NCBI GenBank assembly: GCA_903864905.1
Contig: CAIPHR010000052.1
Location: forward strand, 1 to 47,260
Reading direction: 5' to 3'
DNA length: 47,260 nt
From: an uncultured bacterium
GTDB lineage: Bacteria; Patescibacteriota; Minisyncoccia; Phycocordibacterales; PALSA-1337
Shown: positions 16,365-43,865 of the stretch, piece after piece
How the letters are laid out: each line of letters opens with the position of its first letter
Position numbering within the stretch: position 1 is the first letter of the stretch
Made by a program: the position numbers and the translations under genes
Notes under the pieces: generated by a model
What the model was told of the DNA's origin: nothing
Seen by the model: only the letters and a program-made list of their open reading frames with translations
Databases searched by the model: none

Positions 16365-16382
16365 ATAAATATTTCATAAAAA

Positions 16383-18074: not shown

Positions 18075-18094
18075 ATCCACAACATCAATAATAT

Positions 18095-20086: not shown

Positions 20087-20089
20087 AAC

Positions 20090-20815: not shown

Positions 20816-20844
20816 GATGATGAATACAATAAGTAATTGAAGTA

Positions 20845-20948: not shown

Positions 20949-21012
20949 TGATTTTTGAAATTGGGTAAGCTTCGCTTCCACAAATCCTCATTCGACGCTA
21001 TAATACATATCA

Positions 21013-21447: not shown

Positions 21448-21450
21448 AAC

Positions 21451-22083
21451 ATGGCTTCACAATCAAAAACAACTCAAGACTTCGTACCGATCAAAGAGAT
21501 CCGAGATGGTGTGATCGTACTCAAGAATGGTGGCATGAGATCTATCATACTTGCTTCATCGCTCAATTTTGCTCTGAAATCACAAGACGAACAGAGTTCT
21601 ATCTTGATACAATTCCAGAACTTTCTCAACTCTCTAGATTTTTCTATACAGATCAGTATACAATCAAAAAAACTAGATATCAGGCCATATCTAGCACTTC
21701 TAGAGGGTAGGTACAAAGAGCAAGGAACTGAACTAATGAAGATACAAGTTAGAGAATATATAGAGTTTATCCGTACATTCGTGGAGAGCACCAATATCAT
21801 GTCAAAAAGCTTCTTTGTTGTCATACCTTATGATCCTCCAATGATGACTATTTCACAAAATCCTCTTTCTAGATTCCTACCAAAAAAGAAAAGTGGTGCC
21901 AATAACTTCGACGAACAATTCCAAGAATATCGAAGTCAGCTCGAGCAGAGAGCCTCTGTCGTAGAGCAGGGACTTGTGCGTTGTGGTATCCGTAGTGCAG
22001 AACTAGGAACAGAAGAAGTGGTAGAATTGTATTACAAACTATTTAATCCAGGTGAAACAGAGAAGCCTATTCAGATCACATAA
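21451..22083 (+). CDS. Stand-alone protein resembling a VirB4 N-terminal domain (no ATPase motifs)
   Basis: 210-aa ORF. TQDFVPIKEIRDGVIVLKNGGMRSIILASSLNFALKSQDEQ resembles the N-terminal segment of Gram-positive VirB4/TrsE-type proteins. No Walker motifs. Confidence 0.45.
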   Translation: MASQSKTTQDFVPIKEIRDGVIVLKNGGMRSIILASSLNFALKSQDEQSSILIQFQNFLNSLDFSIQISIQSKKLDIRPYLALLEGRYKEQGTELMKIQVREYIEFIRTFVESTNIMSKSFFVVIPYDPPMMTISQNPLSRFLPKKKSGANNFDEQFQEYRSQLEQRASVVEQGLVRCGIRSAELGTEEVVELYYKLFNPGETEKPIQIT

Positions 22084-22089
22084 AATACT

Positions 22090-23928
22090 ATGTCTATATT
22101 TTCAAAATTATTAGGAAAAAAAGAAGAGAACAATCCTATCGTTTCTATACTCCCAGAAGAGATATACCAGGCTGGTGTTTTGGAGCTCAAAGATGTTATA
22201 GCCCCTTCAGCACTAAAGGTTAGTCCAAAAGAACTGAACCTTGGTGAAAAAGTTGGTAGGACACTATTCGTCATATCATATCCTCGCTTTTTGGATGAGA
22301 GCTGGTTCGCACCGATAATAAACTTGGATAAAATATTTAATGTCTCTATTTTTATACATCCAGTAGATACTGCCAAAATATTGAGACACTTCCAGAAAAA
22401 GGTAGCAGAAGTACAAAGCCAGATATCTAGAAGGGAAGACAAAGGTCTAGTCAGGGATCCTGCACTAGACACAGCATACCAGGATCTAGAAGCACTACGT
22501 GATCAGTTGATGCAGGCACAGGAGCATCTTTTTGACGTTGGAGTCTACATAACACTCTTTGCTGATAACAGTGCTGAACTAGACAAACTAGAATCGGAGA
22601 TCAAATCATTGCTAGAATCAAAACTAGTGTATCTAAAACCTGCCCTATTCCAACAAGAACAAGGCTTCAAGTCAGTTATACCGATATGTGATGATGAACT
22701 TGCTGTCAATTCAAAACTCAATTCATCACCATTGTCATCACTATTTCCATTCGTATCATTCGACCTAACCTCAGATAAGGGAATACTTTATGGAATAAAT
22801 AGACACAATTCTTCTCTAGTACTTTTTGACAGATACCTATTGGAAAACTATAACTCTGTTACTTTCGCAGTTGCTGGTGCAGGAAAATCGTATTGTACGA
22901 AATTGGAAATCCTAAGAACACTCATGTTCGATACTGATGTTATCGTTATAGACCCTGAAAAGGAGTATGAATATATGGCAGAAGCAACTGGTGGTAAGTA
23001 TTTCAATATATCCCTAAACTCTGAACACCATATCAACCCATTCGACCTGCCAATACCACGTGAAGACGAGTCTGCATCTGATGTTTTGCGATCAAATATC
23101 ATCAACCTGGTTGGGCTTTTCCGTATAATGCTAGGTGGTCTCACTCAAGAAGAAGACGCCATCATAGATCGTGCAGTTACTGAAACTTATGCATTGAAAG
23201 ATATAACATCAGAATCCAATTTCAAAAGCGTAGAACCGCCTCTATTATCAGACTTCGAACTAGTTCTAGCTGGTATGGAGGGTGCTGACTCACTGGTTCA
23301 AAGACTATCTAAATATACAAAAGGTACTTGGTCAGGATTCATCAATAGACCATCGAATGTGGATATCAACAAGAAATTTGCCGTATTTTCACTTCGAGAC
23401 ATGGAAGATGAGTTGAAACCTGTTGCAATGTATATAGTCACACACTATATATGGAATGCTATACGCAAGAATCTAAAGAAGCGTCTACTAGTCATCGACG
23501 AGGCTTGGTGGATGATGAAATCAGAAGATACGGCTTCATTCCTGTTTGGTTTGGCAAAAAGGGGTCGTAAATACTTCCTTGGACTAGCTACTATCACGCA
23601 GGACGTTGATGATTTCTTGAAATCTCCTTATGGTCTACCTATCCTTACAAACTCATCTATACAAATACTACTCAAACAATCTCCAACTGTTATCGACCAT
23701 ATACAACAAACATTCAATCTGACTGATGAAGAGAAATACCTACTACTAGAATCTGACGTAGGGGAGGGAATGTTCTTCGTAGGACTCAAACATGTTGCAA
23801 TAAAGATAGTTGCTTCATATACTGAGGATCAGATCATAACCACCAATCCTGCTCAAGTACTACAGATACAGAATGCAAAGAAGGAATTGGAAGCAGCTGA
23901 AGCAGGTAAAGCTTCAACTACTATATAA
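22090..23928 (+). CDS. virB4: VirB4/TrsE-family type IV secretion ATPase
   Basis: 612-aa ORF with Walker A AVAGAGKSY, Walker B LLVIDEAWWMM, and TITQDVDDF. N-domain: GRTLFVISYPRFLDESWFAPII...SIFIHPVD. Confidence 0.85.
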   Translation: MSIFSKLLGKKEENNPIVSILPEEIYQAGVLELKDVIAPSALKVSPKELNLGEKVGRTLFVISYPRFLDESWFAPIINLDKIFNVSIFIHPVDTAKILRHFQKKVAEVQSQISRREDKGLVRDPALDTAYQDLEALRDQLMQAQEHLFDVGVYITLFADNSAELDKLESEIKSLLESKLVYLKPALFQQEQGFKSVIPICDDELAVNSKLNSSPLSSLFPFVSFDLTSDKGILYGINRHNSSLVLFDRYLLENYNSVTFAVAGAGKSYCTKLEILRTLMFDTDVIVIDPEKEYEYMAEATGGKYFNISLNSEHHINPFDLPIPREDESASDVLRSNIINLVGLFRIMLGGLTQEEDAIIDRAVTETYALKDITSESNFKSVEPPLLSDFELVLAGMEGADSLVQRLSKYTKGTWSGFINRPSNVDINKKFAVFSLRDMEDELKPVAMYIVTHYIWNAIRKNLKKRLLVIDEAWWMMKSEDTASFLFGLAKRGRKYFLGLATITQDVDDFLKSPYGLPILTNSSIQILLKQSPTVIDHIQQTFNLTDEEKYLLLESDVGEGMFFVGLKHVAIKIVASYTEDQIITTNPAQVLQIQNAKKELEAAEAGKASTTI

Positions 23929-23969
23929 TAAACAAGAAATCTGTTTCAATCTAATGGTATAATTGGTTC

Positions 23970-24506
23970 ATGGCGCAGAGACAAGACAAATCAAAAGGTT
24001 GGTTACTACTATATATATTTTCTGGTGGCATGGATCTGATTCAGTTCGTATTTATCGAGCTCATTTTGGGCTGGTTTGGTGTAGGAGTAGTAGTAAATGA
24101 GATAATTGACCCAATAGTTGGTATCATAATCGGTTGTTGGATACAGTTTGGAAAAAAAGTTTCACTGATATCGCGCCCAAAACGTATTATATCCATGTTC
24201 GGGACTGAAGCTGTTGGTGCACTAACTAGTGGCATAGCACAACTATGGGTTCTAGATGTTTGGTATATTCATAACGACGTAAAGAAAGAAGAAGCGGAGC
24301 TAAAAGCACAAGAAGCCAAGGATCTGGCTATACAGTCATCTAATGGTGAACAAAATATTGATGGCACCAGATACCCTAGAAATCCTTACAATACATCTAT
24401 GCAAGGCCCTGTTAATAAAGACGGGGTACGATTACCTCGTGGTGGAATGAGACCAATAAATAGCAGGATTGCTTTACCTGATACAAAACCACCAATTATA
24501 AAGTAA
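23970..24506 (+). CDS. Hypothetical membrane protein
   Basis: 178-aa ORF with 2-3 hydrophobic spans in the first ~100 aa. TGgTATAAT at 23955-23963, 6 nt before the ATG. Confidence 0.55.
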   Translation: MAQRQDKSKGWLLLYIFSGGMDLIQFVFIELILGWFGVGVVVNEIIDPIVGIIIGCWIQFGKKVSLISRPKRIISMFGTEAVGALTSGIAQLWVLDVWYIHNDVKKEEAELKAQEAKDLAIQSSNGEQNIDGTRYPRNPYNTSMQGPVNKDGVRLPRGGMRPINSRIALPDTKPPIIK

Positions 24507-24588
24507 ATCATATAGTTATACTGATCAATATGTATTCATCCACAATTCACATACTTCTTCATCAGTATTCATGGTAAAATAATATGCA

Positions 24589-25620
24589 ATGATACGCTGT
24601 TCTAATAAACAATTCGTATTGCTTTCAGTTATTATTGTTTTTTCAATGTTTCTTTTTACTTCTAGAACAATAGCACAAGGAATACCGATGTCTGATGGCC
24701 TCAATATCACATTATCTACTGACAACCCTTTGCCAGGTCAAGTAGTCAGTATCACCGTGAATAGTTATGGTGCAGATATTAGCGCTGCAAAAATGGTTTG
24801 GTCAGTAAATGGAAAAGTAGTAAAGAATGAAATTGGTTTGAATACTATAGATGTAAATGCTCCAGCTCTAGGAGCAAAACTCGAAGTCACGATCACTGCA
24901 ACAACGCCAGATGGTTCCGTTGTGCGAGGCTCCACCACCATCACATCTGGAGTAGTCGATATGATAGTAGAATCAGATGGCTATGTACCTCCCTTATTCT
25001 TTGGCAAAACGGCTATCGGATACCAGAACTCAGTCAAAATAACAGCTATTCCTCATCTCGCCAATTCATCAGGAAAAGAATATGATGCGAGCAAACTAGT
25101 CTATAGGTGGAAAAAAGGTGGCTCTCTCATTCAAGAAAAATCTGGTTATGGAAAACAGTCTATTGTCATTGCTGGTGATATCATCCCTAGAGCATATGAG
25201 ATGGAGGTGACTGTATCAGAAAGTACGAGCGGTGCTCAGGCTGTAGGTATTTCACTCATAGAACCACAGGAACCTAGTATCTCTTTCTATGTGAATGACC
25301 CTCTATATGGCACTCTATATAATAGAGCGATCGGTAATAGTATGGGTATAGGTTCTCAGAATGAAAGGGGAATTCTCGCTGTACTTTTTGGTTTCAATAA
25401 TGGAACATCTCTATCTTGGCTCATCAATGGCGAATCTCACCCTGAACTCAATGATAAATCATCAGTTATTCTGAGATCTTCTAGTGCAGATGGTGGCTCC
25501 TCTATCGTTCACCTTGATGCTAGTAATGCGAACAATATTCTACAGGGAGCAAGGTCAGAATTTACGGTTTTATTTGGCCCGTCAAGTGATGCTACTACTA
25601 CAAATAGTTATCAACTATAA
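24589..25620 (+). CDS. Hypothetical secreted protein, beta-rich (Ig-like-looking repeats)
   Basis: 343-aa ORF with a signal-like N-terminus (VLLSVIIVFSMFLFTSRTIAQG). TGgTAAAAT at 24572-24580, 8 nt before the ATG. Confidence 0.55.
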   Translation: MIRCSNKQFVLLSVIIVFSMFLFTSRTIAQGIPMSDGLNITLSTDNPLPGQVVSITVNSYGADISAAKMVWSVNGKVVKNEIGLNTIDVNAPALGAKLEVTITATTPDGSVVRGSTTITSGVVDMIVESDGYVPPLFFGKTAIGYQNSVKITAIPHLANSSGKEYDASKLVYRWKKGGSLIQEKSGYGKQSIVIAGDIIPRAYEMEVTVSESTSGAQAVGISLIEPQEPSISFYVNDPLYGTLYNRAIGNSMGIGSQNERGILAVLFGFNNGTSLSWLINGESHPELNDKSSVILRSSSADGGSSIVHLDASNANNILQGARSEFTVLFGPSSDATTTNSYQL

Positions 25621-25622
25621 AA

Positions 25623-26825
25623 ATGAACAATGCCAATAAAAAAACCATATCTTTCATAATGAGTGTACTCATCACCACTACCATGTTTATCGGTGTTTTA
25701 TCTATCAATACTACTCAACTGGTAAATGCCGAAGGTCCTGCATATACTCTTCTAGAACCTTTGCCAAAAGTAACTCAGAGTGGACAAGTCAGTATGGAAC
25801 CAAGCGTTTCATTATCTACATATATACAAGACGCTATCAATCTTTTCATTGCTCTGTCTGCAGTATCTGCTGTTTTCATGATTGTATGGGGCGGTCTAGA
25901 ATATATGACTACTGATTCGTGGAAAGGTAAAGATGATGGAATAAAAAAGGTTAAAAATGCGGTAATTGGGTTAATAATGGTTCTTTCAGCGGTTCTCATA
26001 TTGAAAACTGTCAATCCACAACTCATCGAAGTTGCTAAAATACCGAGTATTCAAGGTGAGTTGAAAACTAGTAGCTTAGATACTTTTAGAAATGCGGGGA
26101 GTCTATCTGGTGCGGCAATAAATCAACAAGTAGCACAAACAACTCAACAATCAAATACTACTGCTTCAAATATAGTGGCACAAAACAATAGTCTTGTTTC
26201 ACTGCAGCAACAATATAATGATTTGGCATATGAAATGGCTCTAACTACAGATTCTGATACATATTCCGAACTCGAAGCGCAACAACAAGAAATACAAGAT
26301 CAAATATCTGGCACAATAAACACAAGAACAGTACAAGAAACAGCATTATATTTTAATTCTCAATTACGACCAAATGTTGAAAACCCTAATAATATGGAAC
26401 AACTTAATACGGCTCTTGCAAATATTGGTAGATCATATGGTACTGCTTCATCTAATCTTCAAAGAAATGGACAATTTGATTTAACAGAATTAAATAATCA
26501 ATATAACTATAGTGAAGCCTCACTAAATATTATGCGAGCAAACCTTGCACTTAGCTCGGCACAGATTAATAGTTCTAGTATGGGAACGAGTCCAGGTACA
26601 GGAGGGGGTTTATCAGTTATTATGACAAACCCTGAAACAGGTGTAAATTTCAATAGACCACTAACCCCGACTGAGGCATATAATAATCTACGAGGCCTAT
26701 TGAACACTGCATCTTCTGGTATTAATAATGTATCCGACCAAACACTAAAAACAAACTTACAAAATCAAATACAGGCTGCTATGTCTAGTTTAAATGCCTC
26801 TCAAATTGGTAGATACGGACATTAA
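25623..26825 (+). CDS. VirB2/TrbC-type pilin-like two-TM module fused to a ~270-aa Gln/Asn/Ser/Thr-rich C-terminal extension
   Basis: 400-aa ORF. Signal/TM1 (ISFIMSVLITTTMFIGVLSI...VNAEGP), LLEPLP motif, TM2 (INLFIALSAVSAVFMIVWGGLEYM), a short KGKDDGIKKVKN loop, then TM3 (AVIGLIMVLSAVLILKTVNPQL). A low-complexity tail follows. Confidence 0.5.
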   Translation: MNNANKKTISFIMSVLITTTMFIGVLSINTTQLVNAEGPAYTLLEPLPKVTQSGQVSMEPSVSLSTYIQDAINLFIALSAVSAVFMIVWGGLEYMTTDSWKGKDDGIKKVKNAVIGLIMVLSAVLILKTVNPQLIEVAKIPSIQGELKTSSLDTFRNAGSLSGAAINQQVAQTTQQSNTTASNIVAQNNSLVSLQQQYNDLAYEMALTTDSDTYSELEAQQQEIQDQISGTINTRTVQETALYFNSQLRPNVENPNNMEQLNTALANIGRSYGTASSNLQRNGQFDLTELNNQYNYSEASLNIMRANLALSSAQINSSSMGTSPGTGGGLSVIMTNPETGVNFNRPLTPTEAYNNLRGLLNTASSGINNVSDQTLKTNLQNQIQAAMSSLNASQIGRYGH

Positions 26826-26837
26826 GATAATAATCAT

Positions 26838-28208
26838 ATGCCACAAAATAACAGATCACCAATTGTATACATCGTTCCGATCATAATAGTACTTATTCTG
26901 ATTGGCCTAGCTTTCTATATCATTTTCAATCGCAAATCCTCAGTAACAACCACTAACACTACCAACAGTCAAGATGGTAGCTTCACACCTTTTGGTACTA
27001 TACCTCCACACTCTACAACTACTGCTGTTACACGTACTACAGTATCCACCAATACACTTAGCAGTTATTCGAACAATAAGATATCTCTCAGACTTCTCAG
27101 TAATACACCAGTTGGTGGTTATGGTGCTAGCACAACAGCATCTACTACAATAGTCAGATGGGTAGACCGAGGAAGAGGGAATATATATGAAGCACGTTAC
27201 AATGATCCAAACATTATAACTATATCGAATACTCTAGTTCCAAAAATATACAACAGTACCTGGAATAAAAATCTCACAGCATTCATCGGACCAACGATAC
27301 AAGACACCATATCAGAACCTTCAACATTATATGCTGAAATAAGAGCGAGAATTGTACCTATCATATCCAGCTCAACCAAGAAGACGAGCTCTACGACTCC
27401 ACAAACATCGACATCGACAGCTTTAGCATCAAGTACTATAGTAGCACCAGGAACATCATTCATTGGGCAAACTCCTTATGAATTGAAAGGAAAGAATCTC
27501 CCAGCACATATCATCACATATGCAGCATCACCAAAGATGGACAAGATATTCTTCCTAGTGAATGAATCTGGCTATGGAGTAGGTTATACTGCTAGTTTCG
27601 ATGGTAAATCAGTCACGAAAATATTCAGCACACCTATATTGCAGTTAAATGCAGAGTGGCCAGAAGAGAATACTATAGCGCTAACAACCAAAGGATCTGC
27701 CCTATACGGTGGTTTCCTTTACTTTGTGAACCCAAAAACAGGGGCATGGAAGAAGATAATAGGTCCGATTTTGGGTCTTAGTACAAAAGTCAGTCATGAT
27801 GCCAAATATGTATTGGCTTCATCAGCAGAAACTAACTCTGTTAGTACAGCAATATTCAATATATCAACACAAAAATACACTACAGCTTTAGTAAAAACAA
27901 TTGCTGATAAATGTACTTGGGGGAATTTCAATGCAGCAATGGTCTATTGCGCAGTTCCTTCACAATCAGTACCTGGTTTATATCCTGATGATTGGTATAG
28001 GGGTATTATTGCATTTGCAGACAAACTATGGCAACTAAATGCTAGTTCTGGTGAGATACATCTAGTATCTACTATAGTAGATCAATCTGACCGAGTAATA
28101 GATGCTATCAACCTAGGTCTAGATCCAAAAGATGAATATCTATTCTTCATGAATAAAAATGACCTATCACTATGGTCATATGATCTAGTTAGTGGAAAAG
28201 TTAGATAA
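26838..28208 (+). CDS. Hypothetical membrane-anchored protein with Thr/Ser linker and beta-propeller-like body; last gene of the cluster
   Basis: 456-aa ORF with TM IVYIVPIIIVLILIGLAFYIIF, Thr-rich tracts, and repetitive beta-strand-like segments. Confidence 0.55.
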   Translation: MPQNNRSPIVYIVPIIIVLILIGLAFYIIFNRKSSVTTTNTTNSQDGSFTPFGTIPPHSTTTAVTRTTVSTNTLSSYSNNKISLRLLSNTPVGGYGASTTASTTIVRWVDRGRGNIYEARYNDPNIITISNTLVPKIYNSTWNKNLTAFIGPTIQDTISEPSTLYAEIRARIVPIISSSTKKTSSTTPQTSTSTALASSTIVAPGTSFIGQTPYELKGKNLPAHIITYAASPKMDKIFFLVNESGYGVGYTASFDGKSVTKIFSTPILQLNAEWPEENTIALTTKGSALYGGFLYFVNPKTGAWKKIIGPILGLSTKVSHDAKYVLASSAETNSVSTAIFNISTQKYTTALVKTIADKCTWGNFNAAMVYCAVPSQSVPGLYPDDWYRGIIAFADKLWQLNASSGEIHLVSTIVDQSDRVIDAINLGLDPKDEYLFFMNKNDLSLWSYDLVSGKVR

Positions 28209-28215
28209 AACTATA

Positions 28216-28962
28216 TTAGTGAATATGTTTTTTCCTGATATATATCTCCTGAAATAGAGTAAACAGTGAGCTTACTGACCAATATATAGCTATTACTGCT
28301 GCAGCTTGAGGATACGTAGCTGGAATAATCCAATAAACTGACACGAATGCTATGATCGGAAGGAAATACTTCATCTGTGTAGTCATCATATTTGCCATTT
28401 GAGCAGCATCTGGAACATTACTTTTCTTTGATGGATCAATAGGTGTTTTTGCTACTTGTTTCGAAGCAAAAGAAAAATGCATCTGTAGGAATTGGATGAT
28501 AGCCGTTATTATCGCTAAAATAAGACTCTTGCTGGTCAGATCTAAGCCTAGTAATGTAGGTTTGATAATAGGAACATGTACAAAACTATATAGATAAGAA
28601 GCGTCAACTGTAGGAATAATCTTATAAAAAACTGATATCAGTGCTAGAAGGATCGGTAATTGAATAAACAATAATAAAACACTAGAAAAAGGCTTAACTT
28701 TCTTTGCTTTGTATAGCTCCATGATTTTGAGAGCCTGTGTTTGCTTATCTGTAGCGTATTGAATACGTATCTTATTGGCCTCTGGCTCAACTTCCTTCAT
28801 ACGAACCTGAGTCAATACAGAGCTCTTTGAAAGAGGGAATAGAATAAGTCGTATAATAACAGTGAATATTATCACCGCAATACCGACATCAACACCTGGA
28901 AGAATATCCATTATCCCTATCAATCCATTATAAAGCGGTAGAAAAATGAAATTATGGAACAT
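28216..28962 (-). CDS. yidC: YidC/Oxa1-family membrane insertase (short form)
   Basis: 248-aa polytopic ORF in the conserved rpmH-rnpA-yidC order. Confidence 0.85.
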   Translation of the reverse strand: MFHNFIFLPLYNGLIGIMDILPGVDVGIAVIIFTVIIRLILFPLSKSSVLTQVRMKEVEPEANKIRIQYATDKQTQALKIMELYKAKKVKPFSSVLLLFIQLPILLALISVFYKIIPTVDASYLYSFVHVPIIKPTLLGLDLTSKSLILAIITAIIQFLQMHFSFASKQVAKTPIDPSKKSNVPDAAQMANMMTTQMKYFLPIIAFVSVYWIIPATYPQAAAVIAIYWSVSSLFTLFQEIYIRKKHIH

Positions 28963-28974
28963 TGTGTATCAATA

Positions 28975-29310
28975 CTACATCAATAATCCAGCTTTTACAA
29001 AGATTTCAAGTATTTCTTTACTTAATTGATCAGGAGTCGATTTCAATATTGTATTCTTGGCAAAAATAACAATATGATATTCTGCCTTTATTCTAAAAAA
29101 GACTGGGCCGACTGCGTCATATATGAGTCGTCTATACTTATTCCTCATTGATGCTTTTTTAGCTACTTTAACTGGTATAACGCTTGAAACACGTGGTTTT
29201 CCATCAGATTGACCTACTCTCATTAGAAAAAGAGAAGAGTGATAAGCTCTTCCTTTTTCCATTACTGAATTGAATTGTCCAACAGAGAGTCTCTGTGAAC
29301 TTGGCAGCAT
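28975..29310 (-). CDS. rnpA: RNase P protein component
   Basis: 111-aa basic ORF (KKASMRNKYRRLIYDAV) directly after rpmH. Confidence 0.85.
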   Translation of the reverse strand: MLPSSQRLSVGQFNSVMEKGRAYHSSLFLMRVGQSDGKPRVSSVIPVKVAKKASMRNKYRRLIYDAVGPVFFRIKAEYHIVIFAKNTILKSTPDQLSKEILEIFVKAGLLM

Positions 29311-29312
29311 AT

Positions 29313-29447
29313 TTATACAGCAACACGCTTACGACCCTTACTCCTGCGACGAGCAAGCACTTTTCGTCCTGAGGTCGTCTTCATGCGTACTCGAAAACCA
29401 GGAGATTTTGCACGCTTCCTCTTTTTTGGATTATATGTGAATGACAT
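29313..29447 (-). CDS. rpmH: 50S ribosomal protein L34
   Basis: Not in the ORF track (44 aa). Minus strand ATG 29447 to TAA 29313 translates to [44 protein letters not shown]. Confidence 0.9.
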
Positions 29448-29586
29448 GAATACTACTGTACCTTATTATCAATAATAATTCAAGTTTTTAAAAATAAAAT
29501 AGTTATCAACATCTTATCAACATATTTTTGACCTCTCCACAAGTTTAAATATTTATAAACAGGTATATACTTAAAGAAAAAATTTC
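29448..29586. promoter_or_regulatory. rpmH-dnaA spacer: candidate oriC part / dnaA promoter with two near-consensus DnaA boxes and an AT-rich tract
   Basis: TTATCAACA at 29503-29511 and 29514-29522 (each 1 mismatch to TTATCCACA). AT run TTTTTAAAAATAAAAT at 29485-29500. Confidence 0.6.
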
Positions 29587-30936
29587 ATGCAAGACTATTC
29601 AAAAATGTGGCAAACGGCTTTAGTAGAAATAGAGACAATAGTGTCTCAAGCAAACTTTTCGACCTGGTTCAAAGAAACAAAGATACTGAAAGAAAATGAG
29701 GGAACAGTATATCTAGGTGTACCAAACTCATTTACACAAGAATGGTTATACAAAAAGTTTCATAACAATATATTACGTATACTTAGGGAAATGAATGATG
29801 GTATAAGAGCCCTAGAATACGTCATAACTAAAGAAAATGAGAAGTCACGCTCCAATGATGCAAAGAAGAAGGTTGTTGCTACGCCAACAATATCAATGCC
29901 TTTGCATGATTTCTATATAAACAAAGAGGATAACTTGAATCCTCGTTACACTTTTGATAATTTTGTAATAGGGCCATTCAATGAGCTTGCACACGCAGCT
30001 TCTCAAGCGGTCATAAAGAGCCCTGGTTTGGCTTACAATCCATTATTTGTATATGGAAGCACTGGTAGAGGTAAAACTCACCTTATTCAAGCTGTAGGCA
30101 ATCAAATAAAGAGACTTCACCCAAACAAAAAGGTCTTCTATCTAACATCAGAGAGGTTTGGTTCTGAGTTTTTCGTTGCAATTCAAGAAAACAAGGTTCA
30201 ACCATTCAAGGATAAATATAGAAAATATGATGTAATGATCATGGACGATGTACAATTCTTCTCACACAAAGAAAAATTCCAGGAAGAGTTATTCCATTTC
30301 TTCAATACTTTCCATGATACAGGAAGACAGCTAGTGTTTTCATCAGATAGACACCCAAACGTTATCCCTGGGCTAGAAGCTCGCCTAAGAGGCAGATTCA
30401 GTGTAGGAATGATAGTTGATATACCAGAACCAGATCATGAGTCTAGGATGGCAATAGTGAGAACCAAGTGTGGTATACACAACATAACACTATCTACAGA
30501 TACTGTAGAATATTTATCTGGATCAATAAATGATAATATCCGTGAAATAGAAGGTATAGTCAATGTTATAGCCTGCCAGACACAGTTAAAAAATAGGGAA
30601 TTGAATATAAATGAGATAAAAGATATATTAAAGAACAGTATAAAACCAAAGAAAACCGTTTCAATAAAAGATATAGTAAAAATAGTTTCTGATTTCTACA
30701 ATATAGATGAAGATAGTATATACAACAAAACTCGCAGAAAAGAGGTGGTTAAGCCACGCCAAGTTGTAATGTATATGTTGCGTGAAGATTTCAATATATC
30801 TTTTCCATCAATAGGTGAGAAACTTGGTGGTAGAGACCATACAACTGTTATACATTCATATGAGAAAATAAAGGAAGATATCAAAACAAATACCGTATTA
30901 TTACAAGAGGTCAATCAACTCCGATCTATGTTATAA
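29587..30936 (+). CDS. dnaA: Chromosomal replication initiator DnaA
   Basis: 449-aa ORF with AAA+ Walker A GSTGRGKTHL, Walker B MIMDDVQF, and a C-terminal DNA-binding domain (VKPRQVVMYMLRE...GGRDHTTVIHSYEKI). Confidence 0.95.
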   Translation: MQDYSKMWQTALVEIETIVSQANFSTWFKETKILKENEGTVYLGVPNSFTQEWLYKKFHNNILRILREMNDGIRALEYVITKENEKSRSNDAKKKVVATPTISMPLHDFYINKEDNLNPRYTFDNFVIGPFNELAHAASQAVIKSPGLAYNPLFVYGSTGRGKTHLIQAVGNQIKRLHPNKKVFYLTSERFGSEFFVAIQENKVQPFKDKYRKYDVMIMDDVQFFSHKEKFQEELFHFFNTFHDTGRQLVFSSDRHPNVIPGLEARLRGRFSVGMIVDIPEPDHESRMAIVRTKCGIHNITLSTDTVEYLSGSINDNIREIEGIVNVIACQTQLKNRELNINEIKDILKNSIKPKKTVSIKDIVKIVSDFYNIDEDSIYNKTRRKEVVKPRQVVMYMLREDFNISFPSIGEKLGGRDHTTVIHSYEKIKEDIKTNTVLLQEVNQLRSML

Positions 30937-31087
30937 AGCTGTGGATAATGTGTTGATTGTATGTATACAAGAATTAGAGACATAAGATAACAAACACTTT
31001 TCAACAGGATAACTTATAAGCAAATTAATATATAGAACCAATATTAGCCATAGAAAAAATTATCAACATATTCACACCCCTAATAAC
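30937..31087. promoter_or_regulatory. dnaA-dnaN spacer: candidate oriC part with one perfect and one near-consensus DnaA box
   Basis: TGTGGATAA at 30940-30948 (perfect, minus orientation). TTATCAACA at 31060-31068. Confidence 0.6.
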
Positions 31088-32194
31088 ATGAAATTTGAAA
31101 TAAACTTTAAAAAACTAAAAGACGCAATCAATCTAATAGAGAGGATAACTAGCAAACATATGACACTTCCAGTTCTGTCATGTGTGTTTATAGAGGTTGA
31201 TGATAATGTAGCGATATTCAAAGCAACTAACTTGGATATAGGTGTTGAAGTATCCGTACCAGTAAAAACAAATACAAAAGGTGTTGCTGCTGTTCCTGGT
31301 CAAATCCTATCCTCGTTCATTTCTCAAATTCAAGAAGACAATCAAGTTGTTAAGGTTGAAGTTATTTCGGGAAATTTGAATATTCAGGCCAGCAAATCAA
31401 AAGTTGTTATAAAAACACTAGCAACTGATGATTTTCCAACTATACCAAAGGTAATAGATGGGCAAGAGATGGATATACCTAGTGATGTGTTTATAAAAGG
31501 TCTAAAATCAGTAGGTTATAGTGCTTCAGTTTCTAGTGTAAAACCAGAATTATCCAGCGTTTATATATACAAGGATGGAGATTTTATAGTATTTGCAGCA
31601 ACTGACTCATTTCGATTGGCTGAAAAAAAGATCAAGGTACCATTATCATTGAAAATTGATGATATATTACTACCTTTCAAGAATATTTCTGATATTACTA
31701 GGATAATAGAAAGTATGGGTACAAACCTAAAAGCTAAGATGGGCAAGAATTTGATATCATTTGATGCAAATGGAATATATGTTGTATCACGTATCATTGA
31801 TGGAACATTTCCTGATTATAAACAGATAATACCAAAAGGGTATGCAACAGAGGTTATAACTTTGAAACAGGATATGTTGAACGCTTTGAAAATATCAAAT
31901 ATTTTTTCTGATAAATTCAACCAGATACATATAACAGTTGATCCAAAAGCAAAAATTTTCGATGTACAGACGAAAAATTCTGATATTGGAGAGAATAAAA
32001 CAAATATTGATGCATCTATAACAGGGGAAAAGATGGAGATCAATTTTAATTATAAGTATATAGTAGATTGTTTCCAGTCTATCGATGCTGATAGTATATC
32101 TTTGCAATTGAGTGGTATAAATAAACCAATGGTCATTCGACCAATTTCTGGAGATCAGACATTTATGTATTTAGTAATGCCTATGAATCGCTAG
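31088..32194 (+). CDS. dnaN: DNA polymerase III beta sliding clamp
   Basis: 368-aa ORF with a three-domain beta-clamp pattern (ATDSFRLAEKK, C-terminal FMYLVMPMN). Confidence 0.9.
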   Translation: MKFEINFKKLKDAINLIERITSKHMTLPVLSCVFIEVDDNVAIFKATNLDIGVEVSVPVKTNTKGVAAVPGQILSSFISQIQEDNQVVKVEVISGNLNIQASKSKVVIKTLATDDFPTIPKVIDGQEMDIPSDVFIKGLKSVGYSASVSSVKPELSSVYIYKDGDFIVFAATDSFRLAEKKIKVPLSLKIDDILLPFKNISDITRIIESMGTNLKAKMGKNLISFDANGIYVVSRIIDGTFPDYKQIIPKGYATEVITLKQDMLNALKISNIFSDKFNQIHITVDPKAKIFDVQTKNSDIGENKTNIDASITGEKMEINFNYKYIVDCFQSIDADSISLQLSGINKPMVIRPISGDQTFMYLVMPMNR

Positions 32195-37771: not shown

Positions 37772-39451
37772 TCAATCCTCAAGAGAAATTACTCTTTGTA
37801 ATTCGGATAAAGATGTCATACCTTTCAATATTTTGATAATACCATCTTGTTTCATTGTTAGTATTCCTTGATCTTTCGCTGCGCTCCATATTTCACGTTC
37901 ACTAGGGTTGCTTTCAACAGCATCCTCGACTTTTTGATTGGTTAAGATCGCTTCATACACACCTATTCTGCCTTTGTAACCTGTCATATTGCATTTCTCA
38001 CAACCAGCAGCAACCCACATTTTTGACCTATCTACAGGGATCAATGATTTGTCTTCTATACTAGCTATAACTGTTTCTATCTCTTTCTGGGATTCTCCTT
38101 CAACAGGACTTTCTTTTTTACAAACATTACACAATCTTCTGGTTAGTCTTTGTGCCATAGCTACACGAAGTGCGGAAGTTATAACTTTTGAGTTTACACC
38201 GAGATCGATAAGACGGGGGAATGTACCTGCTGCATCATTGGTATGGAGTGTGGAAAAAACTAGGTGACCAGTCAAAGCAGAATTGATAGCTATATCAGCT
38301 GTCTCATTGTCTCGGATTTCACCGACCATGATGATGTCAGGGTCTTGTCTAACTGCAGCTCTCAATCCTTCAAGGAAGTTATAGCCTTTGTCATTGACTT
38401 GTGTCTGAACTATACCTGGTAGGTGGTATTCTATAGGGTCTTCTATGGTAATTATCTTTACTTGTGTATTGTGTATCTTTTTCAAGAAGGCATATAGTGT
38501 GGTTGTTTTACCTGAACCAGTTGGACCTGTAGTTAGGATCATTCCATCTGGTCTGTCCATCTCTTTTATAAGTATGGCTAGTAGTTTTTCGTGAATACCG
38601 AGTTCTTCTAGTGATACATTGATGGATTTTGGATTCAAAATACGCATAACTACAGACTCATTATAGGCTCCTGGTAATATAGATACACGAACTTCTATAT
38701 CACCAATAGATAGTCGTATACTGAATCTTCCGTCTTGGGAATCTTTCTTTATATTGAGTTTCATTCCAGAGATCAATTTTATACGTGATAGAAGTAGATT
38801 GTATGTTTCATTATCAAATCGTGTTACTTCTTGGAGTACACCATCGAGACGGTATCTGAGCTGTACGTACTTTTCTTCTGGCTCTAGGTGTATATCTGAA
38901 GCATCTATAGCCAATGATCCAGCAACGATCGTTTCCAATATTCTAGATACTCTGTAACTCTTATTTCCTGACATAGTTGTTTCTAGGATTTTGATCACCA
39001 AAGGTAAACTTTTTGCTTGTTCTATAATAGAAGATATCTCTTCGCTAGATATTTCTAGTGATCCAACTTTACTCTCATAAGCGAAAGACATGTCTTTGTA
39101 TGTTTTCCATGCTTTCTCTAGACTTAATGTAGAACAAATATAGAGTTCTGGAATATAGCCTTTTGTTTTCAATGTTTCCAATACCGCAAGTACTTTCTCA
39201 TCTTGTGGGTTTCTAGTTGCGACTTTGATCTTCTTGTCTATAAGAGCGTAACCAGCTATTTGTGTGTCTCTAGCTATCTTTTCGTCTACAAGTCTCAATG
39301 CGTCTGAGCTTACTGGGGTTGCTTGCAGGTTCACGTATTCAACAGAATATTTTCCTGCCAGCATTTGTACCAGCTCCTCCTCTTCTTTGTGTAGAAGTTC
39401 GATTATCTTTCTATTTTGTTTGTCTTCATCAAATACTAGTGTCATAGACAT
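37772..39451 (-). CDS. pilB: PilB/GspE-family secretion/pilus assembly ATPase
   Basis: 559-aa ORF with an N-terminal GspE_N-like domain, Walker A GPTGSGKTT, Walker B IIMVGEIRD, His box TGHLVFSTLHTN, and tetra-Cys CNVC...CEKC. The start may be ATG 39445 (third codon), judged from the TATACT box. Confidence 0.9.
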   Translation of the reverse strand: MSMTLVFDEDKQNRKIIELLHKEEEELVQMLAGKYSVEYVNLQATPVSSDALRLVDEKIARDTQIAGYALIDKKIKVATRNPQDEKVLAVLETLKTKGYIPELYICSTLSLEKAWKTYKDMSFAYESKVGSLEISSEEISSIIEQAKSLPLVIKILETTMSGNKSYRVSRILETIVAGSLAIDASDIHLEPEEKYVQLRYRLDGVLQEVTRFDNETYNLLLSRIKLISGMKLNIKKDSQDGRFSIRLSIGDIEVRVSILPGAYNESVVMRILNPKSINVSLEELGIHEKLLAILIKEMDRPDGMILTTGPTGSGKTTTLYAFLKKIHNTQVKIITIEDPIEYHLPGIVQTQVNDKGYNFLEGLRAAVRQDPDIIMVGEIRDNETADIAINSALTGHLVFSTLHTNDAAGTFPRLIDLGVNSKVITSALRVAMAQRLTRRLCNVCKKESPVEGESQKEIETVIASIEDKSLIPVDRSKMWVAAGCEKCNMTGYKGRIGVYEAILTNQKVEDAVESNPSEREIWSAAKDQGILTMKQDGIIKILKGMTSLSELQRVISLED

Positions 39452-39484
39452 AGTATATCAGTAAGTGAAATACTTTTCACTTAC

Positions 39485-39607
39485 AATACCTTGAAATATC
39501 CTGCAACAATTTTGGGACACAGATATTTCCTTGCTAGGAAATTCCTAGTGCTCGCGTCAGACACGCTCGCAAGTCCACAAAATTGTTGCAGGATATTTCA
39601 AGGTATT
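39485..39607. repeat. 123-bp element with 29-bp perfect inverted arms around a GC-rich 65-nt core
   Basis: AATACCTTGAAATATCCTGCAACAATTTT (39485-39513) is the exact reverse complement of 39579-39607. The core contains mutually exclusive hairpins ATTTCC/GGAAAT and CTAGG/CCTAG. Confidence 0.9.
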
Positions 39608-39687
39608 ATAATTATAGAAAGCTCTCAGTCATAATTTAGTGATCTGTGGAAATGAAAAGTACGTTGCTTTCTGATATAGTGATCTAA

Positions 39688-40194
39688 ATGAAAAATTACT
39701 CATCCAGTTCACTCGAACAAACTAGAGAGATTGCCAAACAGTGGTTATCTACACTTGTAGCTACAAATGAAGTCACTAGTGAGTCAGACATAACCGAATC
39801 GAAAGGTGCCACTATTGTTGGTCTTTCTGGCCACCTAGGAGCAGGGAAGACTGCTTTTGTGAAGATGGTTGCAAGGTGGCTTGGTATCAAGGATGAGATA
39901 ACTAGTCCTACTTATGTGATCATGAAGATCTATGATCTAGATTCAAATATTTATAATCAAATATTGCAAGCTATTCCAAATCCATGGAAGAGGCTTATTC
40001 ATATAGATGCATACCGGTTGGAAAGATATGAGGAATTAGAAGTCTTAAACTGGGAACAGCTCGTTAGAGATCCAGGTAATCTAATAATGGTTGAATGGCC
40101 AGAAAATGCCGAGATTGATAAAAACAAAAACCCCAACATGATTCAGTTGGAGTTTAAGATTGTTGGAGATAAGTATTGTTTGGCTGAGTGTTAG
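39688..40194 (+). CDS. tsaE: tRNA t6A biosynthesis ATPase TsaE
   Basis: 168-aa ORF with P-loop GLSGHLGAGKTAFVK, SPTY, HIDAYRL, VEWPE. TGaTATAGT at 39672-39680, 7 nt before the ATG. Confidence 0.8.
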   Translation: MKNYSSSSLEQTREIAKQWLSTLVATNEVTSESDITESKGATIVGLSGHLGAGKTAFVKMVARWLGIKDEITSPTYVIMKIYDLDSNIYNQILQAIPNPWKRLIHIDAYRLERYEELEVLNWEQLVRDPGNLIMVEWPENAEIDKNKNPNMIQLEFKIVGDKYCLAEC

Positions 40195-40201
40195 TTGTTA
40201 A

Positions 40202-40810
40202 TTATTCAACAACGGCCGTAAGAACATCACATACAGCTGTTACATTACCTGGCGTCGATGGAAGAAATGCTATACCAGTCATTACTTGTCCTTCTGGGCA
40301 GGTATATTTCTTTGGTGCGACTTTGTGTGTTGCTTCTGCAGTTACAGTTACTGTTGGTGTTGCTGATGGCGGCGTAGATCCACCAGAACTACTAGGTGTT
40401 CCCCATGATATGTTTCCACTTGCATCAGCCATCTGTAGGTATTTTCCAACATTACTACTAGCACCACTTGTTATTTTTACTGGACCACTCAATATTGTAG
40501 CACCAGAAACTGTGAGACTTCCAGGAGTACCAGTAACATTGATACTAGCTGTTGAAAGGGCATTGATAACCGCGCTGCCAAAAACATCAAATATTGTTGT
40601 TCCACCAGGCATTGTTCCATTACCTATACCTAGAGCACCAACCTTCTTTTGACTTGTTGCACCAACGTTTATAGGAGCATCAACATTGTTACCTGGTGCT
40701 GAACCGGCTGGTGCAGTCCAAGTAGAAGTTGCAAATACAGATAGAGCAAAACCTCCTAGAGCTAGTCCAGTTATTGCTGCAATGCGACTTATTACTGATG
40801 TTTTATTCAT
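40202..40810 (-). CDS. Hypothetical secreted/anchored Gly-Thr-Ser-rich protein with C-terminal two-Cys domain
   Basis: 202-aa ORF. N-terminal anchor IAAITGLALGGFALSVFA, then TSTWTAPAGSAPGNNVDAPINVG...QKKVGALGIG. C-terminal KKYTCPEGQV...VTAVCDV. The plus-strand ORF 40188-40652 is judged a shadow. Confidence 0.6.
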   Translation of the reverse strand: MNKTSVISRIAAITGLALGGFALSVFATSTWTAPAGSAPGNNVDAPINVGATSQKKVGALGIGNGTMPGGTTIFDVFGSAVINALSTASINVTGTPGSLTVSGATILSGPVKITSGASSNVGKYLQMADASGNISWGTPSSSGGSTPPSATPTVTVTAEATHKVAPKKYTCPEGQVMTGIAFLPSTPGNVTAVCDVLTAVVE

Positions 40811-41203: not shown

Positions 41204-41250
41204 AGCTCAGTCAATTATAACACCAGAACAAGTGAAACATTTAAAATGTC

Positions 41251-41259
41251 TGTGGATAA
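41251..41259 (-). promoter_or_regulatory. Perfect DnaA box (TGTGGATAA on plus strand; decamer CTGTGGATAA) in the divergent promoter region upstream of polA
   Basis: Exact 9-mer, 21 nt before polA ATG 41280 and just upstream of its TGtTACAAT box (41262-41270). Confidence 0.6.
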
Positions 41260-41279
41260 CATGTTACAATATTGAATAT

Positions 41280-43865
41280 ATGATAAAAAAAATATATGAT
41301 AAAAAGAAACGTCTAGTATTGCTCGATTCCCATGCTATCCTGCATCGCGCTTACCACGCTCTACCGGATTTTTCTACAGCGAAAGGTGAGCCGACTGGTG
41401 CATTATATGGTCTTTCTGCAATGCTCATCAAGATTATAGAGGATTTGAGGCCTGATTATATCGTTGCTTGTTACGATATGGCTGCGCCGACGTATCGTCA
41501 TGAGGCTTATAAAGAGTATAAAGCTGGTAGGGCAAAGACTGAAGATGATCTCATTATGCAGATCAAGAGGTCATATGATGTGTATCATGCATTGAATATC
41601 CCAATTTATGAAAAGGAAGGTTTCGAGGCTGATGATATGTTGGGGACTATTGTAGAGCAATTGGTAAACCCTTTTGGTGGGAGTAGCTTCTCTTCTCAAA
41701 CCCAGCAAGGGGGAATCGAAGAGAACCTCTCCACACAAGCGGGTTTAATAAAGGTTGATTTGTCCGCCGTACATATTGAGATCATCATCGCCTCTGGAGA
41801 TATGGACACATTACAACTTGTAAAAGGTGAAGATGTGAAGGTGTATACACTGAAGAAGGGAATAAAAGACACCATCATTTATGATGAGAAAGCAGTTATG
41901 GATAGATTTGGTTTCGGGCCATTATTGATCCCTGATTACAAAGGTCTACGTGGTGATCCTTCTGATAACATTGTTGGTGTGAAGGGTATAGGAGAAAAAA
42001 CTGCGACAATACTCATCACTACATTTGGAACAATTGAAAATATTTATAAAGAACTAGAAGCTGGTAATGAAAAGAAATTCAAAGATGCTGGTATAACTCC
42101 TAGAATTATTCAATTATTAAAGGATAATAAAGAAGAGGCTGAGTTTAGTAAGATGTTAGCTACGATACGTAGAGATGCTCCAATCCAGTTTGAATTACCT
42201 GAAAAGACTTTCAAGGAAGGGTTAGATGTTAAAAAAGCCAATGCTTTATGGATGGAACTAGAGTTTAGGACTTTGACACAGAGATTGGAGAAGGTTATTT
42301 TAAATTCAGTTACCCGTCCTTTTGGGGGGAGTAGCTTCTCTTATGAAACCCCGCAAGGAGGAATCGAAGAGAACCTCTCCCCCCAAGTGGACGGAAAAGG
42401 TATTGATGAAGAGAAAAATACAAACGTAGAAATACCATCCAATCAAACTGCACTTTTCCAAGCAATTCCAAAGGATGAATTGGAAAGAACAGCAGTTGCT
42501 CTATGGCTTATCAATTCAGATATAACAAACCCAAAAATTGATGATATTTTGAATTATGCCAACGTTCAGGACTTTGAGTCTGCAAAGAAAAAGATTTTTG
42601 AAGATCTGGGCAAATTGGGCTTGCAGAATCTATATGAGAATGTCGAATTGCCATTGATACCTATTATGCACAAAATGAAAGAAAGAGGGGTAAGGATAGA
42701 TCGTGCGATTTTGCAGAACCTATCAAAAGAGTATCATGCAACACTATCATCTCTCGAAGAAAAAATTTGGAAGGATGCTGGTATGGAGTTCAATATCAAC
42801 TCTCCAAAACAATTGGGAGAAGTCCTTTTCGATAAGCTTGGTTTGGTGGCTAAAAACATGAAGAAAACTGCTGGTGGAGCGAGATCAACACGCGAATCAG
42901 AACTTGAAAAGTTGAAGGACCTACACCCAATAGTTCCAAATATATTCGAATATAGAGAATTACAAAAATTACTTTCAACATATATAGATGCTATACCACC
43001 ACTATTGGGAGATGATGGAAGATTGCATGCTGAGTTTATACCAGCTGGGACTACTACTGGTCGTATGGCTTCACAGAATCCAAACCTGCAAAATATTCCT
43101 GTAAAAAGTGAGCATGGAAAAGCAATTCGCGATGCTTTCATAGCCGAAAATGGTTTTGTATTAGGGGCTTTCGATTATTCACAAATGGAATTACGTATAG
43201 CAGCGTTTCTATCTAAAGATCAGAAGCTTATAGGTATATTCAATAGGGGAGAAGATATACACTCTTCTGTTGCTTCATTCGTTTTCAGAGTACCACAAGA
43301 CAAAGTAACACCAGATATGCGTCGCAAAGCAAAAGTTATAAATTTTGGCATTATGTATGGAATGGGAGTTTTGGCTTTGAAACAAAATTTGGGTAGTACT
43401 AGAGAGGAAGCACAGACATATCTAAATCAGTATTTTGAAACCTTCTCTGGTCTCGCAGCATATTTAGATAGGATCAAAATAGAAACTGCACAAAAAGGAT
43501 ATACTGAGACACATTTTGGAAGGAGAAGATATTTTCAGGGTATAAAATCCAAGATCCCATACATTCGTGCATCTGCAGAACGCATGGCTATCAATGCTCC
43601 TATACAAGGCACAGAAGCAGATATAATCAAGGTTGCTATATCTAGGATTGATGAGTATATTGAGAAACAAGGATTGAGAAATGACGTATTCCTGCTTCTT
43701 CAGGTTCATGATGAACTAGTATATGAAATGCGTAATAATATTGCAGGGCAGGTTTCTGTAGAAATAAAAAAGATCATGGAAGGGGTGATAGATCCTAAGG
43801 ATATTGAAGGAATAGTTTTGAAGGCTGAGTTTGCTATCGGTAAAAATTGGGGGGAACTTAAATGA
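41280..43865 (+). CDS. polA: DNA polymerase I (5' nuclease + polymerase domains) carrying two in-frame repeat insertions
   Basis: 5' nuclease motifs LLDSHAILHRAYHA, GFEADDMLGT, GDMDTLQLV, GVKGIGEKTA. Polymerase motifs RLHAEFIPAGTTTGRMASQNPNLQNIP, DYSQMELRI, QVHDELV. The track start is GTG 41232. ATG 41280 is preferred because it lies 9 nt after TGtTACAAT. Ends TGA TGA TAA. Confidence 0.9.
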   Translation: MIKKIYDKKKRLVLLDSHAILHRAYHALPDFSTAKGEPTGALYGLSAMLIKIIEDLRPDYIVACYDMAAPTYRHEAYKEYKAGRAKTEDDLIMQIKRSYDVYHALNIPIYEKEGFEADDMLGTIVEQLVNPFGGSSFSSQTQQGGIEENLSTQAGLIKVDLSAVHIEIIIASGDMDTLQLVKGEDVKVYTLKKGIKDTIIYDEKAVMDRFGFGPLLIPDYKGLRGDPSDNIVGVKGIGEKTATILITTFGTIENIYKELEAGNEKKFKDAGITPRIIQLLKDNKEEAEFSKMLATIRRDAPIQFELPEKTFKEGLDVKKANALWMELEFRTLTQRLEKVILNSVTRPFGGSSFSYETPQGGIEENLSPQVDGKGIDEEKNTNVEIPSNQTALFQAIPKDELERTAVALWLINSDITNPKIDDILNYANVQDFESAKKKIFEDLGKLGLQNLYENVELPLIPIMHKMKERGVRIDRAILQNLSKEYHATLSSLEEKIWKDAGMEFNINSPKQLGEVLFDKLGLVAKNMKKTAGGARSTRESELEKLKDLHPIVPNIFEYRELQKLLSTYIDAIPPLLGDDGRLHAEFIPAGTTTGRMASQNPNLQNIPVKSEHGKAIRDAFIAENGFVLGAFDYSQMELRIAAFLSKDQKLIGIFNRGEDIHSSVASFVFRVPQDKVTPDMRRKAKVINFGIMYGMGVLALKQNLGSTREEAQTYLNQYFETFSGLAAYLDRIKIETAQKGYTETHFGRRRYFQGIKSKIPYIRASAERMAINAPIQGTEADIIKVAISRIDEYIEKQGLRNDVFLLLQVHDELVYEMRNNIAGQVSVEIKKIMEGVIDPKDIEGIVLKAEFAIGKNWGELK
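41665..41747 (+). repeat. polA palindromic element, copy 1 (73-nt core 41670-41742 plus closing helix)
   Basis: Core is 65/73 identical (ungapped) to 42318-42390. Closing helix TAAACCC (41665-41671) / GGGTTTA (41741-41747). TTCTCTTC/GAAGAGAA 8-bp helix. Encodes PFGGSSFSSQTQQGGIEENLSTQ. Confidence 0.9.
42314..42394 (+). repeat. polA palindromic element, copy 2
   Basis: TTGGGGGGAG (42322-42331) pairs perfectly with CTCCCCCCAA (42377-42386). Closing helix CCGTCC (42314-42319) / GGACGG (42389-42394). Apical CC-GCAA-GG. Encodes PFGGSSFSYETPQGGIEENLSPQ. Confidence 0.9.

Follow-up and report, generated by a model that had tools for sequence, protein, structure and literature searches.

Two in-frame palindromic elements in a Candidatus Taylorbacteria polA gene and a dispersed family of hairpin repeats in coding sequences

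Protein-coding palindromic repeats have been described as a peculiarity of Rickettsia. The Rickettsia palindromic elements (RPE) lie in frame, are translated, occupy surface positions and fall into several families, each with a conserved peptide (work of Ogata et al., 2000 and 2002, reviewed in PMC10969869). The subject here is a pair of hairpin elements inside polA, the gene for DNA polymerase I, on a 47,260-nt contig of an uncultured bacterium (CAIPHR010000052.1). This whole stretch is called the window. Homologues of the encoded protein are named DNA polymerase of Candidatus Taylorbacteria, within the Patescibacteria or Candidate Phyla Radiation (CPR), with the domains PF02739, PF01367, and PF00476. 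[quoted passage not shown]

Like RPE, the element is a short palindrome that lies in frame in unrelated housekeeping genes, is apparently translated at positions compatible with the protein fold, has subfamilies, and contains no internal transposase. It forms a stable hairpin, occurs in several unrelated genes of related genomes (tatD, tsaE, murB, and two sites of polA), and lies at permissive positions in PolA. The host differs (CPR rather than Rickettsia), as does the length (~81-84 nt rather than ~100-150 bp). No peptide, frame, or orientation is conserved, with F2, R0, R2, and an F0/F2 hybrid all being used, and this sets the element apart from RPE as they are described. The element reoccupies the same loops in either orientation, and the copy number seen is low. 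The element is therefore not an RPE in the strict sense, on account of host phylum, length, and the lack of a conserved peptide or frame.

Bacterial MITEs such as QMITE1 and QMITE2 of Coxiella, Correia, ERIC, and BOX (PMC5896051, PMC10969869) resemble the element in being small and non-autonomous, with inverted repeats, a long hairpin, and in-frame gene fusion. They also form subfamilies with common ends and a different interior, as the tsaE copy does here. The polA-element copies differ in having no target-site duplication and no parent insertion sequence (IS) that could be found. Coxiella QMITEs insert at the 3' ends of the functional annotated genes that they affect (PMC5896051), whereas every copy of the polA element is internal to a coding sequence. 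The coding inverted repeats of Nematomorpha mitochondria are likewise hairpin repeats inside the coding genes of a reduced AT-rich genome (PMC6649704). Those are organellar, long, and perfect, whereas the 83-nt hairpin here is imperfect, has conserved bulges, and is apparently translated.

The GC clusters and byps of yeast mitochondria are hairpin repeats in coding genes of an organelle; byps are bypassed and not translated. REP/BIME sequences and attC sites are imperfect hairpins that are recognized by conserved extrahelical bases or mismatches rather than by stem sequence, and their stems covary. REPs are extragenic and linked to a RAYT gene, while attC sites border cassettes next to an integrase. 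Neither setting was seen in the window, and all copies of the polA element are intragenic. In full-text literature searches, no account of elements of this kind in CPR/Patescibacteria turned up.

The polA hairpins and their conserved structure

A first-pass annotation, made from the window sequence alone, had proposed that a palindromic element occurs twice in polA. The repeat was recovered with a repeat finder and translation of the open reading frames (ORFs). The 73-nt cores at 41670-41742 and 42318-42390 are 89% identical (65/73) without gaps, lie 648 nt apart, and are both in the polA frame. They encode PFGGSSFSSQTQQGGIEENLSTQ in copy 1 and PFGGSSFSYETPQGGIEENLSPQ in copy 2, as had been read. 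Both copies had also been called GC-rich. This holds for copy 2 (57%), but copy 1 is only modestly so (49%), compared with 37.5% for the window.

Each copy folds into one long hairpin, as expected from the earlier reading. The RNA minimum free energy is -36.4 kcal/mol for copy 1 (z = -4.1) and -50.9 kcal/mol for copy 2 (z = -6.6), and in neither case was any of 200 shuffled sequences as good. Folding with DNA parameters, or of the minus strand, leads to the same outcome. When all 90-nt windows of the stretch were scanned with correction for GC content, copy 2 ranked first and copy 1 sixth. The helices TTGGGGGGAG/CTCCCCCCAA and TTCTCTT(C)/(G)AAGAGAA and the apical CCCC-GCAA-GG(A)GG that had been predicted were each seen, as were closing helices that differ between the copies (Table 1). 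A covariance model, R1, scores copy 1 at 95 bits (E = 1e-23) and copy 2 at 100.9 bits (E = 2e-25).

Table 1. Positions in the window of polA, the two element copies, and their helices
Feature	Position	Strand	Description
polA, DNA polymerase I (5' nuclease and polymerase domains)	41232..43865	+	From ORF list, homologues, Pfam, and PDB match; hosts both copies
Element copy 1	41665..41747	+	83-nt hairpin; in-frame reading ..NPFGGSSFSSQTQQGGIEENLSTQAGL..; in the 5' nuclease domain loop that separates GTIVEQL from IEIIIASGDMD
Copy 1 closing helix, 5' arm TAAACCC	41665..41671	+	Pairs with 41741-41747; columns covary across copies
Copy 1 apical stem-loop equivalent	41701-41713	+	
Copy 1 closing helix, 3' arm GGGTTTA	41741..41747	+	Pairs with 41665-41671
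Element copy 2	42313..42395	+	Hairpin proper 42314-42394 (81 nt); in-frame reading ..RPFGGSSFSYETPQGGIEENLSPQVDG..; linker past 5' nuclease domain, immediately following TQRLEKV
Copy 2 closing helix, 5' arm CCGTCC	42314..42319	+	Pairs with 42389-42394; inverted repeat; columns covary
Copy 2 apical stem-loop CCCC-GCAA-GG(A)GG	42349..42361	+	Between internal-loop sequences ..GAAA and AATCG; near-invariant in all copies
Copy 2 closing helix, 3' arm GGACGG	42389..42394	+	Pairs with 42314-42319

The stem is conserved by base pairing across the copies that were collected from related genomes. RNAalifold on a MAFFT alignment gave a single interrupted stem of 28 bp, with compensatory double changes at 11/28 pairs. 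In a 10-copy alignment, 92.4% of cells are paired and 16/28 stem pairs have double changes; this alignment was fitted to the covariance model and so leans toward structure, and the MAFFT result agrees with it. Column shuffles gave 6.1±1.4 such pairs (0/500 reached the observed value), and sliding the partners by 1-3 columns gave at most 4. The covariation first suspected from the two closing helices of the window was borne out. Closing-helix variants include TAAACCC, CCGTCC, CCGACC, CCGCCC, CCGCTC, GCATCC, GCACCC, and GCGTC, each with its complement.

The imperfections of the hairpin are also constant. In all copies and in either orientation a T is bulged, one position is C.C or T.A, and another is a T.G wobble; TCAAA/GAATCG in the internal loop and CCCC-GCAA-GGGG at the apex are likewise kept. 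The unit is an inverted repeat over its whole length, and the conserved subterminal CCTTTTGG / CCAAGCGG are common even to the tsaE subfamily. With RNA as with DNA parameters, the folding of the two strands is about equal, which gives no evidence of a role for the sense-strand RNA. A cis-regulatory structure would be expected in a fixed orientation and in one gene; reverse copies are present in polA, tatD, and tsaE.

The reverse copies encode unrelated peptides, for example LGGEVLSDSPLRG..ATPPKR and PLGGRGSLRF..SYSPQKD. Since both orientations and at least three reading frames are used, the peptide is not the conserved feature. It is the hairpin nucleic acid that is conserved.

Copies in other genes, reading frame, and position in the protein

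About 12 further copies were found in related Candidatus Taylorbacteria contigs. They lie in the same two polA loops and in tatD, murB, and tsaE, the last being a subfamily with the same ends. A six-frame peptide query identified P0001, a TatD protein that carries HPLGGRGSLRFPLAGFEERSYSPQKD, the minus-strand reading of the element. Over the element, its DNA (L001:10509-10591, minus strand) matches the window copies at 92-93% identity. Orthologues of PolA with the element are encoded in L012, L013, L015, L018, and L019. The copies are forward in L013 (site 2) and L015 (site 1) and reversed in L018 (site 2) and L019 (site 1). An exhaustive profile search with the forward-frame peptide against 1.84 billion representative proteins gave two true matches, P0122 and P0123. 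P0122 (L021), again a TatD, has the element in forward orientation at the P0001 site, and P0123 (L022) is a MurB fragment with the element. Further TatD copies, P0126 and P0127 (L025-L027), are all reversed and score 94 bits. In P0128 (L024) and P0135, the tatD insert resembles the remnant of an internal deletion (ISPL/QKD and SHPLGG/V).

A covariance model built from eight copies found a 74-nt relative in tsaE of L013. Its ends, CCACCC-TTTTGG...CCAAGC-GGGTGG, have the CC-TTTTGG...CCAAGC-GG of the other copies, and the interior differs. It sits in a loop that is longer than in five orthologues.

Two of the copies have features of their own. The polA site 1 copy in L019 (9818-9930) contains a nested GC-rich hairpin of 30 nt (CCCCTCGCCGCGCCGAGCTTGGCGAGGCGGGG in element orientation) inserted exactly where the main stem meets the internal loop, with the frame kept. 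In the murB contig (L022:704-1006) the outer helix is unpaired, and a stop codon and a much more GC-rich stretch follow. Because the outer helix is unpaired, this contig seems to switch copies inside the element, and it has the look of a chimera that arose at the repeat during assembly.

Other searches gave few or no matches. Neither a mismatch search nor the covariance model with filters off found a third copy in the 47-kb window. Rfam had no match to the element at the gathering threshold nor at E <= 1, and a similarity search of a plasmid collection had none. The six-frame peptide concatenate, searched against an indexed protein database, found only P0001; it missed the element-bearing P0002 and P0005, so a negative from that query is weak. 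An exact 20-mer pattern with 19 specified bases gave only chance matches in 185,579 species genomes (one per GTDB species), and exact-pattern scans of metagenome contigs and of IMG/VR viral contigs also gave only chance matches, as judged by eye or with the covariance model. A 15-nt match at L015:12595-12609 was rejected as chance, with no hairpin.

The copies appear to be compatible with translation throughout. Nine copies, delimited by identical column boundaries, are 83, 83, 83, 83, 80, 80, 113, 83, and 74 nt long. All are 2 mod 3, so the differences between them are multiples of three. Deletions of 2 nt and 1 nt at different positions of the element in L015 and L018 shift the frame in part and restore it before polA resumes, and P0017 switches frame within the element. 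A typical copy has 4/6 frames open, of which F2, R0, and R2 are in use. Since lengths differ in threes and frameshifts are repaired inside the element, translation together with its host gene is almost certain.

The insertion points in polA had been regarded as tolerant of extra residues. The PDB matches of PolA are the Pol I structures 6vde and 1taq. In the alignment to 6vde, query residues 128-168 face 7 residues of the structure, and the 5' nuclease match stops at query residue 341, just before copy 2. AlphaFold2 models residues 133-164 (copy 1) and 343-395 (copy 2) as coil, with a confidence score (pLDDT) of <50. Both loops are hypervariable among 120 orthologues. The polA inserts are thus modelled at permissive loop or linker positions, in agreement with the earlier assessment.

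Different repeat-like peptides occupy the same two loops in PolA of other Paceibacteria. P0041 has one peptide of ~45 residues (HPLFQRGTLQRDSLVKGGEIQENIH..DGKS.F.KGG) in both loops, and P0006 and P0059 have peptides of the 'IPAKAGIQ' / 'DSRLRGNDK' type. This suggests that several palindromic-repeat families colonise polA loops across the group.

Spread, turnover, and competing explanations

The distribution of the element is patchy. Among the 120 PolA orthologues the family is confined to the ~17 closest, and each occupied lineage in the PolA tree has an empty sister. The closest relatives of the window protein are P0002 (98% identical) and P0003 (80% identical). The first-pass annotation had asked whether the inserts are specific to a lineage, and in the orthologue alignment the close relatives P0003 and P0004 are without either insert. 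Between the window and L012, whose PolA proteins are 98% identical, there are ~27 polA substitutions, of which 8 lie within the element's 151 nt, where ~2 are expected (a ~4-fold excess). Of the three changes in copy 2, two convert it to the copy 1 state. Stem variants are common to the copies of one genome or sample, such as CTTCTCTTC/GAAGAGAAC in the window and CTYCTCTCC/GGAGAGRAC in L001 and L019. Between genomes the element is also more alike (0.69-0.90) than are the third positions of polA (0.42-0.50). Turnover or gene conversion among copies fits these data better than quiet vertical descent.

If the element is an RPE-like or MITE-like repeat, it would spread or be exchanged at the DNA level, either by an enzyme acting in trans or by recombination or gene conversion between copies. 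The process may recognize the hairpin or its conserved imperfections, namely the bulged T, the C.C mismatch, the T.G wobble, and the internal-loop sequences. Survivors would be limited to insertions that keep the frame in surface loops or linkers. The element would then be transcribed and translated with the host gene and yield a disordered Gly/Ser/Pro/Gln-rich loop of ~27-28 residues without a function of its own. The earlier proposal of an RPE-like in-frame palindromic repeat, with selection on nucleic-acid structure over peptide, is supported by the copies in other genes, by the two orientations, by the stem covariation, by close PolA orthologues that have neither insert, and by the placing of both inserts in loop or linker modelled as coil. 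Three outcomes that had been named as speaking against that proposal, namely no other copies, the same peptide without a hairpin, and loss of flank complementarity in orthologues, did not occur.

Several observations weigh against mobility of this kind. No consistent direct repeat of at least 4 nt (as a target-site duplication) and no target motif was found at the junctions of 11 copies. A transposase or RAYT-like gene (Y1 domain) was not detected when 30 window ORFs were compared with Pfam. The sole recombinase seen among these ORFs is an XerC/D-type integrase (3139-4062), and no related autonomous IS or transposase was seen among them or in the loci of related genomes. All copies lie inside coding sequences, with no intergenic copy in ~240 kb of related DNA. 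Only 2 copies are present in the 47-kb window, and few matches were found in very large protein and DNA collections, so a high copy number and current mobility are not established. The copy density is ~1 per 20 kb, in loci that were picked for containing a copy, and 2-3 copies are seen per genome.

The orientation pattern also counts against this explanation. Both orientations occur, in different genomes, at polA site 1, polA site 2, and the tatD site. At polA site 1, the junctions of L015 and L019 coincide within ~1 nt, and the subterminal C.T mismatch is inverted as well. The window and L013 differ in orientation from L018 at polA site 2, and L021 differs from L001 and L025 in tatD. The opposite tatD copies are 90% identical and have a tatD-specific closing helix in common; the flanking gene is 68% identical. 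Near-coincident junctions together with site-specific closing-helix variants are not predicted by random transposition. The junctions, near-coincident in both orientations, fit either insertion with very high site specificity or long residence in which the unit flips in place. On the first view, permissive loops are very few and insertion strongly selects its sites; on the second, the unit as a whole can flip or re-enter in place. A TA target, and an origin of the closing helix from a palindromic target, were considered and rejected. The helix variant travels with the inverted element (L015 vs L019; L021 vs L001) and thus belongs to the element itself, not to the target.

A structure that is resident and selected by the host is an unlikely alternative that nonetheless accounts for part of the data. 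It would be an ancient hairpin that purifying selection keeps at a few fixed sites and that is inherited vertically and occasionally lost, its DNA or RNA structure serving perhaps to bind a protein, to signal replication or recombination, or to pause translation between domains. Element identity between genomes (0.69-0.90) is well above that at host synonymous sites (0.42-0.50 at polA third positions), with 0.67-0.69 for tatD outside the insert. Diverged genomes carry the element at the same sites with closing helices that are specific to the site (GCGCAYCC in tatD; TCCGCCC in L015 and L019), and the stems have compensatory changes. The deletion footprints in L024/P0128 and P0135 imply that the element was ancestrally present in tatD. 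However, sister lineages are entirely without the element, the host genes are unrelated to one another, the substitution excess between the strains with 98% identical PolA is difficult to reconcile with residence, and copies within a genome are more alike than same-site copies of other genomes. Orientation is not fixed with respect to transcription or to the nearby dnaA-side origin. A strand-specific role in the mRNA is therefore unlikely, and the regulatory mRNA hairpin that had been offered as an alternative is disfavoured.

The element could also be an undescribed type of coding-region hairpin cassette in CPR that homes to, or flips in, a few protein loops by hairpin-specific recombination on single-stranded DNA or a cruciform, although the probability of this is rather low. 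If this were so, one locus could carry either orientation and encode alternative loop peptides.

It is less probable still that a site-specific or hairpin-specific recombinase moves or flips the unit in place as an invertible or homing cassette, with alternative loop peptides as the product. The two orientations at three sites, the coinciding junctions and inverted mismatch of L015 and L019, and the close identity of opposite tatD copies in diverged flanks all point in this direction. Against this, no recombinase is consistently linked to the copies, and no single population has been seen with both orientations. Mismatches extend to the ends of the arms, so simple arm-to-arm recombination cannot yield the inversion of the whole unit that was observed. 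Repeated insertion, together with selection for a small number of permissive loops, could give the same picture.

It is highly improbable that the element is an intervening sequence absent from the protein, either excised from the mRNA as a hairpin or bypassed by the ribosome as in T4 gene 60 and the yeast mitochondrial 'byp'. The hairpin is very stable, its base brings the flanks together, and it is GC-rich within an AT-rich gene, like the mitochondrial GC clusters. However, the host frame is open in every copy, lengths differ in threes, and frameshifts are compensated, none of which is needed for removal or bypass, and there is no Rfam match to an intron or ribozyme. The idea that a peptide module was duplicated in PolA and selected as protein, which would suit the similar same-frame peptides of the two window copies, is effectively refuted by reverse-orientation copies, since the DNA in opposite orientation or another frame gives unrelated peptides in PolA, TatD, and TsaE. 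Conservation also tracks base pairing and not codons, and the peptide is modelled as disordered.

Genomic surroundings and implications

The window is ordinary chromosome, with genes assigned by a Pfam scan of its ORFs. These include the CCA-adding enzyme, Xth, the XerC/D-type integrase, PNPase, UvrD, KsgA, a cluster like that of type IV secretion systems (T4SS), and YidC. They also include dnaA, dnaN, a penicillin-binding protein, ruvC, yebC, ruvB, pilB-like, tsaE, polA, holA-like, and ABC transporter genes. The start codon of polA is ambiguous, the candidates being GTG at 41232 and an ATG farther on, near 41280. The ORFs of the block at 15477-28208 are mostly unannotatable, apart from a TraG/VirB4-like P-loop ATPase (22090-23928) and a T4SS pilin domain protein (25623-26825). 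This block adjoins yidC, dnaA, and dnaN (28216-32194), whose presence indicates that a replication origin region probably lies near 29 kb.

Other hairpins and repeats are present in the window. The pilB-like ATPase gene (37772-39451, minus strand) is separated from tsaE by an intergenic hairpin of 131 nt (39481-39611) whose 34-nt arms are 97% complementary. In sequence this hairpin has no relation to the polA element, and it scores just 15 bits with R1. Strong intergenic hairpins at 20844-20949 (23-nt arms, 96% complementary) and 5211-5300, each with a GC-corrected z of about -4.4, could be terminators or another repeat type. At the contig end (1-83), a 21-nt unit, GATTCTTTCCCTACGGGAACA, is repeated four times head-to-tail, and a GC-rich hairpin (142-181) and tRNA-Arg(TCG) (210-282, minus strand) lie downstream of it. 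Two long ORFs overlap on opposite strands at 40188-40652 (plus) and 40202-40810 (minus). The latter resembles a secreted Gly/Thr/Ser-rich protein and is probably the real gene of the two.

The view of the polA element as a CPR counterpart of the Rickettsia palindromic elements is supported. Its maintenance and orientation pattern present a mechanistic puzzle, in that strong covariation and conservation above synonymous sites are combined with no target-site duplication and with reuse of the same loops in both orientations. The element can be a source of assembly breaks and chimeras, and it can produce false 'novel insertions' in annotation and structure prediction. It helps to explain variation in protein length in CPR. 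The presence of an apparently unrelated family in PolA, TatD, TsaE, and MurB of Patescibacteria suggests that the occupation of protein loops by in-frame selfish hairpins is a recurrent process in reduced genomes that are small and AT-rich.

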